Origin: a virus
Lineage: Duplodnaviria > Heunggongvirae > Uroviricota > Caudoviricetes
IMG/VR virus record: IMGVR_UViG_2547132488_000016
DNA: 6,282 nucleotides
Direction: 5' to 3' (one strand)
Of the stretch, positions 1,914-6,282 are shown in pieces (position 1 is the stretch's first letter; each line of letters opens with the position of its first letter). A model generated the notes under the pieces. That model searched no databases and had not been told where the DNA came from. It saw only the letters and a program-made list of their open reading frames with translations. A program made the position numbers and the translations under genes.

Positions 1914-2600
1914 TTACCAAGTGCGCGATGACCAGAATACTCTACCTATAACGTGAATTCTGGAACGCCTATCTTCGAAGGTGAGTATTTCATCTGGATA
2001 CTCATCTTTATTGAAACTTCTTAGAATCAGACCACCGTCAGGTAAATTGATCAATATCTTAACTCTAAGTAATACGCCATCACGTATAGCATAAAGATCC
2101 CCATCACGAATAGGAACTGTTTGGGAAACATCAACAGCAACAAAATCTCCATTGTTAAGTACAGGTAGTAAACTATTACCCCAAATTTTTACGATCTTTG
2201 CATTGGAGACACATACACCAGCTTTCCTTAAATCAATCCTTCTTAGCGGGAACCAGTCTACAGTTGATTCAACTATTTCAGCCAAACATCCATTACCCGC
2301 TGATAACTCGACATCTAGGACAGGAATGTTTGCAAAAATGTCAGGATCTAATGTTGTACTTTCAGCCTCCTTTACAACAAGGTTTGGGAAAGACGCGTTA
2401 TCCTCAATGCCCAATTGCAACCACTTTTGAGAAACCCCTAACACTTTAGCAATCTCTTTAATTTTCCGAGGCTGTTGAGTTTCTCCATTCTCGATTTTTG
2501 CTACGGATTGTTGTGAAAGCCCAATCTTTTCAGCTAGTTGCGCCTGACTCATTCCTGCTTTTTCTCTTTCGCTTTTTAGTCTTTCTGCCAATGTTTTCAC
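1914..2600 (-). CDS. CI-like prophage repressor (HTH_XRE N-terminal domain + LexA/S24 autopeptidase C-terminal domain), 228 aa
   Basis: GTG start at 2600 with GAGGGGGA 6 nt upstream on the minus strand. N-terminal HTH (MSQAQLAEKIGLSQQSVAKIENGE), candidate Ala-Gly autocleavage site (ELSAGNG), Ser in GNSLLP and Lys in LRVKIL about 40 residues apart (S24 Ser/Lys dyad). Divergent from a Cro-like gene across an operator region. Confidence 0.9.
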   Translation of the reverse strand: MKTLAERLKSEREKAGMSQAQLAEKIGLSQQSVAKIENGETQQPRKIKEIAKVLGVSQKWLQLGIEDNASFPNLVVKEAESTTLDPDIFANIPVLDVELSAGNGCLAEIVESTVDWFPLRRIDLRKAGVCVSNAKIVKIWGNSLLPVLNNGDFVAVDVSQTVPIRDGDLYAIRDGVLLRVKILINLPDGGLILRSFNKDEYPDEILTFEDRRSRIHVIGRVFWSSRTW

Positions 2601-2737
2601 AACATATCCCCCTCGTTTTTATTGAGGTTACAACTTTATGTTTTAGCTTTCCAACATCTAAAAGTTGTGATAAAAGTTGTTATAGTTGTATAATCGAAGT
2701 TATCAACAACTTTACTACTTACAGATAGGAGAAAGCT
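2601..2737. promoter_or_regulatory. OR-like divergent operator/promoter region between cI and cro (PR-like promoter: TTGTGA 2665..2670, TATAAT 2689..2694)
   Basis: Repeated half-sites AAGTTGT (2662..2668, 2674..2680, variant 2685..2691) and ACAACTT/CAACAAC (2630..2637, 2704..2710); outer inverted repeat AAGTTGTT...AACAACTT brackets the consensus -10 TATAAT. -35 TTGTGA with 18-nt spacer. cro SD GGAG 6 nt before ATG 2738. The PRM-like cI promoter could not be placed confidently. Confidence 0.55.
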
Positions 2738-2986
2738 ATGACACCTGAGCAATTAGCCTTATCAGAGGCAATCGCTCTGGCTGGTGGTCAATCAGAATTG
2801 GCTCGGAAGCTCACAGCCAGCAGTGGTCGTTTAGTAAAGCAACAACATGTCTGGAACTGGTTGAACAGAGAAAAGCGTCCCCCTGCAAAGCTCTCGATAT
2901 TCATTGAAATGACCACTGGCGTATCAAAAGAAAAATTACGTCCAGATATTTTTCAAAAGATTAAAGACTTATCAGATGGAAAGTAA
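2738..2986 (+). CDS. Cro-like / YdaS-like small HTH regulator, 82 aa
   Basis: ATG 2738 with AGGAG upstream; TAA stop 2984..2986. Small HTH protein (ALAGGQSELARKLTASSGRLVKQQHVWNWL) immediately rightward of the operator and divergent from cI, the canonical cro position. Resembles the YdaS (Cro analogue) family by motif memory only. Confidence 0.85.
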   Translation: MTPEQLALSEAIALAGGQSELARKLTASSGRLVKQQHVWNWLNREKRPPAKLSIFIEMTTGVSKEKLRPDIFQKIKDLSDGK

Positions 2987-3008
2987 CCACAGTTTTAAGG
3001 AGATAGCC

Positions 3009-3566
3009 GTGGGTAAGCATCACTGGAAAGTAGAAAAACAGCCTGAGTGGTACGTGAAAGCTGTCAGAAAAACTATCGCGGCGTTGCCGGGTGGTTACGC
3101 TGAAGCAGCTGAGTGGCTGGATGTAACAGAGAACGCTTTATTCAACCGCCTTCGTGCAGATGGCGATCAGATTTTCCCGCTGGGATGGGCAATGATTTTA
3201 CAACGTGCTGGTGGAACTCACTTCATTGCTGACGCTGTGGCGCAGTCTGCAAATGGCGTCTTTGTGTCTCTTCCTGACGTCGAGGATGTGGACAACGCCG
3301 ATATTAACCAGCGTCTGCTGGAAGTAATTGAACAGATCGGCAGTTATTCCAGACAGATTCGTTCGGCAATCGAAGATGGGGTAGTGGAGCCACACGAGCA
3401 GACAGCAATTAATGATGAGTTGTATCTGTCAATTTCGAAGCTCCAGGAGCATGCAGCACTGGTCTACAAAATCTTCTGCGCTCCAGAAAAGAGTAACGCC
3501 CGCGAGTGTGCAGCTCCGGGCGTCGTGGCGTCGATTGCTTCTGGTTGTGGAGAAACTAACGCATGA
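3009..3566 (+). CDS. YdaT-like / CII-analogue early regulator, about 185 aa
   Basis: Open frame 2976..3566. GTG at 3009 has a perfect AAGGAG 6 nt upstream (2997..3002), whereas the ATG at 2976 has no SD and overlaps the cro stop, so 3009 is preferred (2976 is the alternative). Occupies the cII position after cro. Stop TGA 3564..3566 overlaps the next ATG (ATGA), indicating translational coupling. YdaT-family assignment is from memory, unverified. Confidence 0.75.
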
Positions 3567-3921
3567 ACAGTTTAACAACACACTACCGTCGCTCGCAACT
3601 GATTGCGCTTCCGGTACCGGGTGGAAAAGCGAAGGTGGAGTATTGCTATGCAGTGAATGTACCAGGTGACAGGGAAATTGTAACCCACAGCTTTGCAGAG
3701 TGGGCTGTGGGTGATTTCAACCGGCAGAAGGAGACAGTCCTTTGCGACAAGTTAACCGCTGGTTCAAAGATCACTACGGAGTGCCCGTCAGAGTCATTCG
3801 TTGGGAGCCGGAAACACAACGGGTTATCTACCTCCGTGAAGGCTATGAACATGAATGCTTCAGCCCGCTCGAACAGTTTCGTCGTAAATTCAGGGAAATA
3901 GAGGTCGGTCATGAGCACTAA
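3563..3921 (+). pseudogene. Small early gene with a broken reading frame: N-terminal part in one frame (3563..about 3750), C-terminal part in the -1 frame (about 3715..3921)
   Basis: ATG 3563 (ATGA overlap with upstream stop) opens a frame with good codon usage for about 60 codons ([53 protein letters not shown]). Beyond about 3750 that frame becomes Ser/Asn-rich with rare codons, while the -1 frame, open from 3715 to TAA 3919..3921, reads protein-like with common codons ([58 protein letters not shown]) and ends 11 nt inside the next gene. Alternative: a separate 59-codon gene from TTG 3742, which has AAGGAG 7 nt upstream. Confidence 0.5.
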
Positions 3922-4867
3922 ATTAACCGGCTATGTATGGGATGGTTGCGCTGCGTCAGGCATGAAGTTATCCAGCGTGGCAATTATGGCCCGCCTGGCT
4001 GATTTCAGTAATGACGAAGGTGTATGCTGGCCATCAATTGAAACCATTGCCCGCCAGATTGGCGCGGGGATGAGTACCGTCAGAACGGCTATCGCACGGC
4101 TGGAAGCAGAAGGCTGGTTAACGCGTAAGGCGCGTCGCCAGGGTAACCGCAATGCGTCGAATGTTTATCAGCTTAACGTTGCGAAGCTTCAGGCAGCGGC
4201 ATTTTCTCAACTGTCAGATTCTGACCCGTCAAAATCTGACGCATCAAAATCTGACGCATCAAAATCTGACCCGTCAAAATTTGATGCGTCGAAATCTGGC
4301 AAAAAAGCGGGTTTTCACCCGTCAGAATCTGGCGGGGATCCGTCAGTAAAATCAAAACATGATCCGTCAGATAAAAAAACTTCTCGTCCGGACGCTTCGC
4401 AACCGGACACGCAGACGGATGAACAGGATTTTTTAACTCGCCATCCTGATGCGGTTGTATTCAGCCCTAAAAAGCGCCAGTGGGGGACGCAGGATGATTT
4501 GACCTGCGCACAGTGGCTCTGGAAAAAAATCATCGCCTTGTACGAGCAGGCCGCCGAATGTGACGGCGAGGGGGTTCGTCCCAAAGAACCTAACTGGACA
4601 GCCTGGGCAAACGAAATTCGCCTGATGTGTGTGCAGGATGGTCGTACTCACAAACAAATCTGCGAGATGTACAGCCGCGTCAGCCGCGATCCGTTCTGGT
4701 GCCGTAACGTGCTCAGCCCGTCGAAGTTGCGGGAAAAATGGGATGAGCTTTCCCTGCGATTATCGCCGTCCGTCAGCACGTACACCGAAAAACGCGAAGA
4801 CCCGTATTTCAAAGCCAGTTACGACAACGTGGACTACAGCCAGATCCCGGCAGGATTCAGGGGGTGA
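3911..4867 (+). CDS. Phage replication initiator (lambda O-like role): N-terminal winged-HTH DNA-binding domain, repeat-rich acidic linker, C-terminal domain; 318 aa
   Basis: ATG 3911 with GAGG 6 nt upstream; TGA stop 4865..4867. N-terminal HTH-like segment (SSVAIMARLADFSNDEGVCWPSIETIARQIGAGMSTVRTAIARLEAEGWLTRK). The gene contains tandem 15-bp iterons that encode an SKSDASKSDASKSDPSKFDASKS repeat, as in lambda O, where ori lies inside the gene. Position after cro/cII-like genes fits. Confidence 0.8.
   Translation: MSTKLTGYVWDGCAASGMKLSSVAIMARLADFSNDEGVCWPSIETIARQIGAGMSTVRTAIARLEAEGWLTRKARRQGNRNASNVYQLNVAKLQAAAFSQLSDSDPSKSDASKSDASKSDPSKFDASKSGKKAGFHPSESGGDPSVKSKHDPSDKKTSRPDASQPDTQTDEQDFLTRHPDAVVFSPKKRQWGTQDDLTCAQWLWKKIIALYEQAAECDGEGVRPKEPNWTAWANEIRLMCVQDGRTHKQICEMYSRVSRDPFWCRNVLSPSKLREKWDELSLRLSPSVSTYTEKREDPYFKASYDNVDYSQIPAGFRG
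4213..4380. repeat. Probable replication origin: five to six tandem 15-bp iterons (TCAAAATCTGACGCA and variants, 4214..4303), degenerate copies to about 4336, then an A-rich tract (4371..4379)
   Basis: Read directly: 4229..4243 and 4244..4258 are identical; 4259..4273, 4274..4288 and 4289..4303 are 1- to 4-mismatch variants; 4214..4228 is a degenerate copy containing the palindrome GTCAGA-T-TCTGAC. Two GATC sites (4337..4340, 4361..4364) and an A-rich tract follow. The layout mirrors lambda ori (iterons plus an AT-rich region inside O). Confidence 0.7.
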
Positions 4868-4869
4868 TC

Positions 4870-5358
4870 ATGAGTCTTTTGAATGAAGTTCAGAAATTCA
4901 TTGAAGCCCATCCGGGGTGTACTTCCGGAGACATTGCGGATGCTTTTGCAGGTTACTCACGGCAGCGCGTTCTGCAGTCAGCAAGCAAGTTACGTCAGAG
5001 TGGGCGTGTGGCTCACCGTTGTGAAGGAGATACACGCAGACATTTCCCACGCCTGACTGAGAGAGCGCAGGAGCCGGAACCACAACCAGTTCGTGAAACC
5101 AGACCTGTGCGCAATTTCTATGTCGGCACTAACGATCCCCGGGTGATTTTGTGCCTGACCCGCCAGGCGGAAGAACTGGAGTCCAGGGGCTTATACCGTC
5201 GTGCTGCAACGGTGTGGATGGCGGCATTCCGTGAAAGCCACTCCCAGCCAGAACGAAACAATTTTCTGGCGCGTCGTGAGCAGTGTTTACGGAAAAGCAG
5301 CAAGCGCGCTGTATCGGGTGATGAGTGGTATCTGTCAGGGAATTACGTGGGGGCTTAA
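4870..5358 (+). CDS. Putative transcriptional regulator: N-terminal winged-helix-like domain plus C-terminal PerC/Pch-like motif; about 162 aa
   Basis: ATG 4870 with GGGGG 5 nt upstream (GTG 4864, overlapping the upstream TGA, is the alternative); TAA stop 5356..5358. The C-terminal segment AEELESRGLYRRAATVWMAAF matches the PerC-family hallmark (LE..GLWRRAA..W) by eye. N-terminus (LLNEVQKFIEAHPGCTSGDIADAFAGYSRQRVLQSASKLRQSGRV) looks like a small wHTH. Confidence 0.65.
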   Translation: MSLLNEVQKFIEAHPGCTSGDIADAFAGYSRQRVLQSASKLRQSGRVAHRCEGDTRRHFPRLTERAQEPEPQPVRETRPVRNFYVGTNDPRVILCLTRQAEELESRGLYRRAATVWMAAFRESHSQPERNNFLARREQCLRKSSKRAVSGDEWYLSGNYVGA

Positions 5359-6011
5359 TGAGTAATAAATATTGCCAGGCGCTGGTGGAACTGCGGAACA
5401 AACCAGCCCATGAACTGAAGGAAGTAGGTGATCAGTGGCGCACGCCGGACAACATTTTCTGGGGAATTAACACCCTGTTTGGCCCGTTTGTTCTGGATCT
5501 GTTCACTGACGGTGATAACGCCAAATGTGCTGCGTATTACACGGCGGAAGACAACGCGCTGGCGCATGACTGGTCAGAACGTCTTGCGGAGCTTAAAGGG
5601 GCTGCCTTTGGTAATCCCCCATACAGTCGCGCCAGTCAGCATGAGGGGCAATACATCACTGGCATGCGTTACATCATGAAACATGCCAGTGCCATGCGTG
5701 ATAAGGGTGGGCGCTATGTTTTCCTGATCAAAGCTGCCACCAGCGAAGTGTGGTGGCCGGAAGATGCGGACCATATTGCTTTTATTCGCGGACGTATTGG
5801 TTTTGAACTGCCTGCCTGGTTTATCCCGAAGGATGAGAAGCAGGTGCCGACAGGCGCTTTCTTCGCTGGTGCTATTGCTGTTTTCGATAAGACCTGGAAG
5901 GGACCGGCAATCAGCTACATCGGGCGCGATGAACTTGAGGCATGTGGTGAGGCGTTTCTGGCGCAGGTTCGCCAGCAGGCGGAAAAACTGGTCAGGGAGA
6001 TGGCGGCATGA
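5358..6011 (+). CDS. Phage-type DNA N6-adenine methyltransferase (Dam family, NPPY motif), 217 aa
   Basis: ATG 5358 overlaps the upstream TAA (TAATG), with GGGGG upstream; the ORF track's earlier start at 5325 is in the same frame and less likely. Contains the catalytic motif GNPPYS (AAFGNPPYSRA) and an upstream W-x-T-P motif (DQWRTPDNIF), typical of small phage orphan Dam-family methyltransferases. Stop TGA 6009..6011 overlaps the next ATG. Confidence 0.8.
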   Translation: MSNKYCQALVELRNKPAHELKEVGDQWRTPDNIFWGINTLFGPFVLDLFTDGDNAKCAAYYTAEDNALAHDWSERLAELKGAAFGNPPYSRASQHEGQYITGMRYIMKHASAMRDKGGRYVFLIKAATSEVWWPEDADHIAFIRGRIGFELPAWFIPKDEKQVPTGAFFAGAIAVFDKTWKGPAISYIGRDELEACGEAFLAQVRQQAEKLVREMAA

Positions 6012-6282
6012 CGACGTTAACTCAATGCCAGCAGCAGGTGCTGGATATGCTGATTTCTTATCAGAAAGAACGTGGCTTCCCGCCAACCAATCAGGAGGTG
6101 GCAACCATGCTGGGATACCGTTCAGTGAATGCAGCGGTGGAGCATCTTCGCGCACTGGAGAAAAAAGGCGTCATCACGATAAAGCGTGGCGTGGCCCGGG
6201 GGATAACGCTTCATACCGCGGTGAAGGACGACGACAGCGAGGCGGTCGGGATTATCCGCGCACTGCTTGCCGGGGAGGAAAA
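6008..6282 (+). CDS. LexA-like repressor (LexA-type N-terminal DNA-binding domain), 5' part only; continues past window end
   Basis: ATG 6008 in an ATGA overlap with the methyltransferase stop; GGGAGA 7 nt upstream. MTTLTQCQQQVLDMLISYQKERGFPPTNQEVATMLGYRSVNAAVEHLRALEKKGVITIKRGVARGITL aligns by eye with the LexA N-terminal domain (LT.RQ..V...I......G.PPT..E.A..LG.RS.NAA.EHL.AL..KGVI......ARGI.L). The final residues RALLAGEE resemble the LexA Ala-Gly cleavage region. Frame is open to the window edge. Confidence 0.7.
   Translation, partial: MTTLTQCQQQVLDMLISYQKERGFPPTNQEVATMLGYRSVNAAVEHLRALEKKGVITIKRGVARGITLHTAVKDDDSEAVGIIRALLAGEE

Follow-up and report, generated by a model that had tools for sequence, protein, structure and literature searches.

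An orphan phage adenine methyltransferase gene overlaps the gene of a probable stand-alone LexA-type regulator in a lambdoid Escherichia coli prophage

Background

What kind of protein is encoded by a LexA-like gene that overlaps a DNA methyltransferase gene in a prophage, and do the two genes form a unit? The question arises from the right end of a 6282-base viral DNA segment (IMG/VR record IMGVR_UViG_2547132488_000016), the whole stretch that was analyzed and that is called the window here. By its open reading frame (ORF) list and a Pfam scan, the window belongs to a lambdoid E. coli prophage of the SfV/mEp460/CPS-53 type and covers its immunity, replication and early-right region. The methyltransferase gene and the LexA-like ORF come last among the visible genes of a tightly packed rightward operon. 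A preliminary description, made from the sequence alone, had reported an adenine methyltransferase with an NPPY motif, an ATGA overlap with the next gene, an alignment of the product of that gene with the LexA DNA-binding domain, and a LexA-like Ala-Gly pair at the window edge. All four observations are confirmed below. It had also proposed that the prophage encodes two autocleavable repressors, one CI-like and the other LexA-like. The analysis points instead to two independent, co-transcribed genes in the nin-like region of the rightward early operon, which probably encode an orphan methylase and an uncleavable LexA-type regulator.

Results and discussion

Extent and family of the LexA-like gene

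The LexA-like gene is at positions 6008–6282 on the plus strand. It starts in the overlap at 6008–6011, GGCGGCATGACGACG, where its ATG (6008–6010) and the methylase TGA (6009–6011) share two bases. The window has the first 91 of 108 codons of this stand-alone LexA-type winged-helix protein gene. The window edge cuts the gene 52 nucleotides (nt), i.e., 17 codons and the stop, short of its end; the full length is that seen in relatives. The LexA-like part of E. coli ZH177 agrees with the window base for base (100% nt identity). The ZH177 ORF (L001:9709–10035) is 327 nt and encodes 108 amino acids (MTTLTQ...LLAGEENARLRATHWLHERDLKV), and its stop overlaps the rusA ATG, again as ATGA. The same 327-nt gene is annotated in phage mEp460 and in E. 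coli C7, the latter being the best whole-window relative. Past position 6282 the source DNA would thus be expected to have 17 further codons (..NARLRATHWLHERDLKV or a close variant), followed by a TGA that overlaps the rusA ATG. The approximately 50 places in phages that tblastn finds with at least 95% identity to the protein span at most residues 1–108.

The 91 codons in the window match the LexA DNA-binding family PF01726 over profile positions 1–65 of 65 (E 1.9e-19). The ORF also matches the structure of the E. coli LexA DNA-binding domain (1LEA) with an E value of 6e-16, and solved LexA structures give E values of about 1e-15. With the full-length protein of 108 amino acids, PF01726 is the sole Pfam match, and there is no match to Peptidase_S24 (PF00717) at E ≤ 0.01. 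The score against the LexA equivalog model TIGR00498 is 70.6 bits, compared with a cutoff of 110.95, and only model positions 1–91 of 203 are covered. The match to PHROG 362 is end to end, with residues 1–108 aligned to profile positions 1–106 of 106 (E 3.8e-59). This PHROG is a short phage LexA-domain family that carries the label 'transcriptional repressor', a label with no experimental basis. Relatives of 105–135 amino acids occupy the same genomic slot, and in this short family the hydrophobic pattern of the tail is kept down to approximately 40% identity.

Predicted fold and recognition helix

An AlphaFold2 monomer model of the 108-residue protein was made from a 27-sequence alignment and has a mean predicted local distance difference test score (pLDDT) of 82. 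It displays a winged helix with helices at residues 6–22, 28–35 and 40–52 and strands at 56–58 and 66–68. A low-confidence linker (71–73) is followed by two tail helices, 74–87 and 93–103, with pLDDT values near 88. The domain plan in the model is a LexA-type winged helix-turn-helix (residues 1–70), then a flexible linker of a few residues and, where LexA has its S24 protease/dimerization domain, a C-terminal hairpin of two helices. Foldseek matches the first 66–71 residues to the LexA N-terminal domains 1LEA and 3JSO with a root-mean-square deviation of 1.0–1.4 Å and 48–52% identity; for 1LEA the values are 1.2 Å and 51% in a structural alignment of 68 columns. Foldseek finds nothing that matches the two-helix tail. 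The conserved hydrophobic pattern of the tail, V/A..I/L-I/L-R.L-L ...... A..A...W/F/Y-L...G, is as expected for a packing or dimerization surface, if the modeled helices are correct.

These properties bear on the suggestion that the ORF is a decaying, functionless fragment of a captured lexA gene. The protein does resemble the first 90 LexA residues, including the Ala-Gly, and many truncated or frameshifted versions are present in the databases. Decay is nevertheless very unlikely: length, tail hydrophobic pattern and genomic position are kept to approximately 40% identity in prophages from several assemblies, the tail forms two confident predicted helices (pLDDT about 88), and the PHROG family of 106 positions is matched from end to end.

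The recognition helix, residues 39–52 (SVNAAVEHLRALEK), is encoded at positions 6122–6163 on the plus strand. It was placed by the alignments and overlaps the predicted helix 40–52. The residues by which LexA contacts DNA are Ser39, Asn41, Ala42, Glu44 and Glu45 (PMC3091678), and four of the five are kept in the phage protein; Glu44 is replaced by Val. Ser39 and Asn41 are invariant or nearly so in the short LexA-like family, and Glu45 varies in its distant members. Position 44 is Val or another non-acidic residue and is never acidic. For this reason the protein probably recognizes an operator that resembles the SOS half-site without being the same.

The Ala-Gly pair and the question of self-cleavage

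Ala88-Gly89 is part of the segment LLAGEE, with the two codons at positions 6269–6274 on the plus strand. Both HMMER and BLASTP align it with Ala84-Gly85 in the VAAGE of LexA. The pair is not conserved. Among 16 close relatives (65–97% identical) the position varies, e.g., LLVGE and LLANE. It is TG in the mEp390 homologue (44% identity) and AE in the Klebsiella phage homologue, and in library representatives down to approximately 40% identity it is ER, TR, SG, DD, AC, AE or AD. In the AlphaFold2 model Ala88-Gly89 forms the end of helix 74–87 and the turn that follows, and not a strand-loop-strand as in LexA. As it is unconserved, is predicted to be at a helix end and is not accompanied by a protease domain, the pair is judged not to be a cleavage site.

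According to the earlier proposal, the ORF encodes a complete LexA-like repressor whose S24 autocleavage domain is past position 6282, which would give the prophage two SOS-cleavable repressors. This proposal drew on the alignment of the N-terminal 90 residues with LexA through the Ala-Gly. Some database records appear to agree with it, as they are named 'SOS-response repressor and protease LexA' or 'RecA-mediated autopeptidases', but these 'protease' names are propagated annotation. The ORF is 108 codons long in every near-identical relative inspected, PF00717 is not matched, the equivalog score is well short of its cutoff, and the residues around the unconserved Ala-Gly are predicted to be helical. 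The proposal is accordingly regarded as exceedingly unlikely. One half of it stands, i.e., the CI-like prophage repressor at positions 1914–2600 (minus strand) has HTH_3 and Peptidase_S24 domains (PF01381, E 1.2e-15; PF00717, E 1e-13) and is the sole autocleavable-type repressor of the window. The LexA-like half fails with the end of the protein at 108 amino acids and no S24 domain. The further expectation of an S24 domain or partner genes beyond the window is contradicted by the relatives, where the frame ends 17 codons on and is followed by rusA, KilA-N, DUF968 and Q.

The protein thus lacks three features that define LexA: the S24 domain, a conserved cleavage site and an equivalog-level score. 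It should therefore not be called LexA, and the names 'LexA repressor', 'SOS-response repressor and protease LexA' and 'RecA-mediated autopeptidase' are over-annotations. Because there is no catalytic Ser/Lys domain and no conserved Ala-Gly, the protein, as judged from its sequence, cannot undergo RecA-stimulated self-cleavage.

Comparison with E. coli LexA (1LEA, 1JHH, 3JSO; TIGR00498) shows a common winged helix-turn-helix fold, 43% identity by BLASTP over 90 residues and a nearly identical recognition helix, SVNAAVEHLRAL in the phage protein vs. SPNAAEEHLKAL in LexA. The differences are as marked. The phage protein is approximately half the length of LexA, has Val in place of Glu44, and is without the S24 domain, Ser119/Lys156 and a conserved cleavage site. 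After residue 70 it has two helices rather than the cleavage-site strands. Its gene is part of a phage lytic operon, whereas LexA is the product of an autoregulated SOS gene. Another analogue is the N-terminal fragment of autocleaved LexA (residues 1–84), which likewise is a DNA-binding domain without the dimerizing protease domain. The isolated fragment binds operators specifically but weakly. The phage protein differs in that it is encoded as such and has the additional conserved two-helix tail, which in the modeled structure could restore dimerization.

A separate observation concerns 15 library proteins of 140–350 amino acids (P0129, P0131, P0148, P0152, P0153, P0155, P0156, P0160–P0162, P0164, P0168, P0187, P0213 and P0217), each of which has two separate matches to the LexA-like query. 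These may have tandem LexA-type DNA-binding domains on one chain. Such proteins could be covalent 'pseudo-dimers', another use of the LexA head without the S24 dimerization domain.

The methyltransferase gene

The gene at positions 5358–6011 (plus strand) encodes a 217-residue phage N6-adenine DNA methyltransferase of the orphan type. The ORF is without interruption, and its length is that of annotated homologues. The product matches the Pfam Dam family PF05869 with 156 bits (cutoff 28.1; E 9.7e-46; profile positions 3–167 of 169), and NCBIfam TIGR01712, 'phage N-6-adenine-methyltransferase', with 255.6 bits (cutoff 97.05; model positions 1–165 of 165). PADLOC model MTase_II PDLC03263 is covered over 1–217 of 217. 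The catalytic motif IV, Asn-Pro-Pro-Tyr (NPPY, residues 86–89), is seen in the sequence and its translation at positions 5613–5624 on the plus strand. Near-identical relatives annotate the gene as 'phage N-6-adenine-methyltransferase', and it is homologous to dam/orf41 of SfV and gp45 of mEp460. The protein is a bona fide member of the TIGR01712/PF05869 family, with a predicted N6-methyladenine (m6A) activity. The hidden Markov model searches that the preliminary description had recommended for both proteins give TIGR01712 and PF05869 for the methylase and, for the LexA-like protein, PF01726 as the sole Pfam family and a score below the TIGR00498 cutoff.

The other phage orphan Dam-like methylases of the PF05869/TIGR01712 type are likewise small, single-domain m6A enzymes with an NPPY motif that are encoded in phage early regions without a restriction partner. 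The 'Dam' enzymes of phages T1, HP1 and VT2, which are of this type, are reported to be GATC-specific. The literature searches found no paper on the sequence specificity of the present methylase, and a sequence search of PDB found no solved structure for it. GATC is slightly under-represented in the window (20 observed vs. 31 expected), but this depletion is mild and uninformative and was dropped as a clue to specificity. Equating the methylase with M.EcoGII or M.EcoGI was rejected, as those are non-specific beta-class enzymes of a different family; M.EcoGIX was also rejected, being plasmid-borne. In prophages of this kind the lysis genes are directly preceded by another 'DNA methylase' gene, distinct from the present one.

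Could the methylase be one half of a restriction-modification or other defense module, with its nuclease partner past position 6282? Its best PADLOC matches are 'Type II methyltransferase' models, and the product of the DUF968 gene, three genes downstream, has an HNH-type nuclease signature. PADLOC recognizes the methylase alone, however, and DUF968 is retained in phages that do not have the methylase and so is not its cognate partner. The genes downstream of the LexA-like gene in ZH177, mEp460 and E. coli C7 are rusA, KilA-N, DUF968, the Q antiterminator gene and lysis genes. None of the relatives inspected has an annotated restriction endonuclease near the locus. In addition, TIGR01712 is a family of phage orphan methylases: homologues of the TIGR01712/PF05869 type are in 587 phage records of many kinds and from many hosts. 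A restriction-modification module is thus highly improbable. The preliminary description had also listed a restriction-modification or SOS-responsive module as an alternative, and it does not hold up, as there is no annotated restriction gene and no SOS box above chance in the window. Another of its alternatives comes near the reading that the analysis supports, namely an anti-restriction methyltransferase followed by a regulator gene.

Three side observations were made on this gene. In many RefSeq phage records (NC_019716, NC_049941, NC_009514, NC_021857 and others) the methylase is named 'phosphoadenosine phosphosulfate reductase'. The name apparently comes from PHROG 33262, a 495-position profile of which the methylase matches positions 283–492 only, and it seems to be an annotation error that has spread from record to record. 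Within the coding region, positions 5657–5666 and 5682–5691 form a perfect inverted repeat of 10 nt, CACTGGCATG / CATGCCAGTG, with 15 nt between the arms; it may be due to chance. An antisense ORF of 193 amino acids (positions 5574–6155) has no Pfam or PADLOC family match and was taken as spurious.

Relatives and gene neighborhood

Of 5426 complete E. coli genomes, 2656 have sequence with 95–99.7% identity to the segment at positions 5300–6282. The segment is also present in 50 phage records, which include Stx2c and Stx2a converting phages and mEp460, and tblastn with the LexA-like protein adds SfV, SfII and cdtI. The relatives in which the end of the LexA-like frame was read are 97.6–100% identical to the window over positions 5358–6282. 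The Shigella phage SfV genes dam (orf41), orf42 and orf43 (rusA) are the same genes in the same order and with the same overlaps. The trio is found in mEp460 (gp45–47), cdtI, SfII, the Stx2c and Stx2a converting phages and CPS-53-like E. coli prophages as well; its 108-residue protein is 96–100% identical, and its DNA is 97.6–99.7% identical to the window. Within 5358–6282 there is essentially no difference between the window and the SfV-type trio, whereas the upstream immunity and replication genes of the window are a different mosaic. SfV orf42 is annotated 'unknown', and the literature searches found no functional study of it or of this short LexA-like protein.

The position of the LexA-like gene is constant: it is 3' of the replication genes and is closely followed by DUF968 and Q. 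In most relatives inspected the rusA gene is between the LexA-like gene and DUF968; SfIV and the Klebsiella phage have no annotated rusA. The slot 5' of the LexA-like gene, after the replication/PerC genes, is variable, and its content ranges from no methylase gene to two. In phages SfIV and 2H10 the LexA-like gene is directly 3' of the PerC-like gene, without a methylase. In mEp390 it is directly after the replication gene, and in the Klebsiella phage and a prophage (locus L009) it is present without any PF05869 gene. One relative has a 284-residue Dam together with a 660-residue protein that has a weak cytosine-C5 methylase match (L010, positions 2171–5004), and another has an enlarged Dam of 392 residues (L008, positions 3826–5004). 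From this gene content the upstream slot looks like an insertion hotspot for optional methylase genes, and the methylase and LexA-like genes are not an obligate pair. As the two are separable, translational coupling is no mark of a functional pair.

The layout of the operon leads to the same view of the overlap. Directly 5' of the methylase is a PerC/YfdN-like gene (positions 4864–5358, plus strand; PF06069, E 1e-09; annotated as PerC family or yfdN in relatives), which shares one base with the methylase start as TAATG. Five of the six gene junctions between positions 2738 and 6282 overlap, by 1 to 11 bases: 2976/2986, ATGA at 3563–3566, GTGA at 4864–4867, TAATG at 5356–5360 and ATGA at 6008–6011, all on the plus strand. 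The sole exception is junction 3901/3911, which has a 9-nt gap. Because overlaps are the norm across the operon, the one between the methylase and LexA-like genes is not special and reflects the general compaction of the operon.

These comparisons also bear on a reading in which the two genes form a functional unit, with the LexA-like protein controlling the methylase, as the C proteins of restriction-modification systems do, or directing it to DNA. Translation of the two genes is coupled by the ATGA overlap, most close relatives have both genes, as do two relatives of approximately 50% identity, and occasional gene calls fuse PF05869 with PF01726. On the other side, the two are found apart in at least five phages or prophages, and overlaps are general in the operon. 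The regulator gene also comes after the gene that it is supposed to control, and no promoter-like site is present between the two or upstream. The fused calls are of odd length (132–185 amino acids), and most are single sequences or form small clusters, as would be expected from frameshifts or truncations. A functional unit is therefore considered improbable.

A similarity of location is seen with lambda. NinH of lambda is a small DNA-binding protein of the lambdoid nin region. The LexA-like protein appears to resemble NinH-type nin proteins in position and size only, as both are encoded between the replication genes and Q and beside a Holliday-junction resolvase gene and have accessory or unassigned functions; the folds are unrelated.

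Transcription and proposed role of the two genes

A pR-like promoter is found at positions 2665–2694 (plus strand) in the CI/Cro intergenic region. It was located by a consensus scan, has 10 of 12 hexamer matches and is the only sigma-70-like match on the plus strand within positions 2400–6282. As the sole match in that range, it is the probable source of a transcript that would span the methylase and LexA-like genes, as far as agreement with a consensus can indicate.

The two genes would be silent in the lysogen, with the CI-like repressor acting at pR. This proposed silence fits a report that related prophage Dam-like methylases are transcriptionally silent in lysogens (PMC4659465). After induction or infection, once the CI-like repressor is inactivated, both products would be made from pR. 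The methylase would then modify the replicating phage DNA, and progeny would escape restriction in the next host. The LexA-like protein would dimerize by means of its helical tail and bind an operator related to the SOS box, probably not identical with it. It would regulate transcription in the lytic phase and stay active in spite of DNA damage, because activated RecA (RecA*) could not inactivate the 108-residue protein.

Search for operators and SOS boxes

LexA binds the SOS box CTG-N10-CAG, and scans of the window show no SOS-box-like site above chance. CTGT-N8-ACAG with one mismatch allowed is matched three times, compared with 2.2 expected. A scan with the 20-mer SOS-box consensus has no match in the window or in locus L003 and one chance-level match in L001.

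Strong SOS-box-like sites are present in two related phages. In mEp460 one site, TACTGTTTTTACATACAGTA, is inside the repressor gene (L002:2254) and another, TACTGTAAAAATAAACAGTG, is at the start of the late-region 'DNA methylase' gene (L002:11305). In SfIV the site TACTGTATTTATGAACAGTA is in an unannotated gap just 3' of the LexA-like gene (L004:3265). Host LexA or the phage LexA-like protein might act at these sites. As an explanation of the locus in the window they were rejected, as the window has no such boxes.

A more specific proposal is that the protein is an uncleavable LexA mimic. It would be made in lytic growth and occupy SOS boxes after host LexA is destroyed. Some genes of the SOS regulon, or the induction circuits that LexA controls in other prophages of the same cell, would thereby be silenced again. 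Identity to the E. coli LexA DNA-binding domain is 51%, with deviations of 1.0–1.2 Å for the best-matching chains; Ser39, Asn41, Ala42 and Glu45 are kept and there is no cleavage domain; and strong SOS boxes occur in mEp460 and directly 3' of the LexA-like gene of SfIV. The replacement of contact residue Glu44 across the family and the variation of Glu45 in distant members mean that specificity may differ, however. No SOS box is present in the window or, above chance, in loci L001 and L003, and the dimerization that the proposal needs is a prediction from the model. The LexA mimic is possible, but rather unlikely.

Some points also weigh against the preferred reading of an orphan methylase and an independent uncleavable regulator. 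The length of 108 residues is that of relatives. Dimerization through the tail is suggested solely by a monomer model. No candidate operator was found, nor any SOS-box-like site above chance in the window or in the flanks of the two closest relatives, and an inverted-repeat scan of the window gave nothing beyond short scattered pairs, the iterons and the repeats of the CI/Cro operators. The literature searched gave no function for either protein.

Other features of the window

The remaining genes of the rightward operon, from the Pfam scan and the ORF list, are a YdaS/Cro-like gene (positions 2738–2986), a CII/CP76-like gene (2976–3566), a small ORF (3563–3901, ORF list) and an HTH_36 replication-initiator-like gene (3911–4867). 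The CI/Cro intergenic region (2630–2714) has the repeated half-sites ACAACTTT/AAAGTTGT and a 12-bp tandem unit, TAAAAGTTGTGA, at positions 2659–2684. Both kinds of repeat overlap the pR-like promoter, and the CI-like repressor probably uses them as its operators.

Inside the replication-initiator-like gene a 15-bp unit, TCTGACCCGTCAAAA, is present in 5.3 tandem copies (positions 4220–4298). The array has overlapping inverted repeats with arms at 4196–4290 and encodes SDASKSDASKSDPSK repeats. It resembles iterons and looks like an origin within the initiator gene, as in lambda O. No Rfam family reaches its gathering score anywhere in the window.

A comparison of the whole window with complete E. 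coli genomes gives a best match of 94.7% identity, in two or three pieces. Positions 5300–6282 alone are up to 99.7% identical. By these comparisons the window is a mosaic, with a nin-like part far more conserved than the immunity and replication part.

Conclusion

The gene pair is already known and very common. It is present in GenBank phage records (SfV dam/orf42) and in the NCBI pipeline annotation of thousands of genomes. The idea of a second SOS-cleavable repressor, which was the source of the original interest in the locus, is mistaken. The practical value of the analysis is that it corrects the annotation of both the 108-residue protein and the methylase.

What is left is the role that a stand-alone, uncleavable LexA DNA-binding domain has in the lytic program of a very common type of E. 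coli prophage. One answer, which is attractive but doubtful, is a RecA-proof 'mini-LexA' that is a dimer through its two-helix tail and binds SOS boxes, or a close variant of them, during lytic growth. If this were true, the protein would shut off selected SOS functions, or would block the LexA-controlled antirepressors or induction circuits of rival prophages in the same cell. With the gene present in about half of the sequenced E. coli genomes, this would represent a widespread and unrecognized manipulation of the SOS response by phages.

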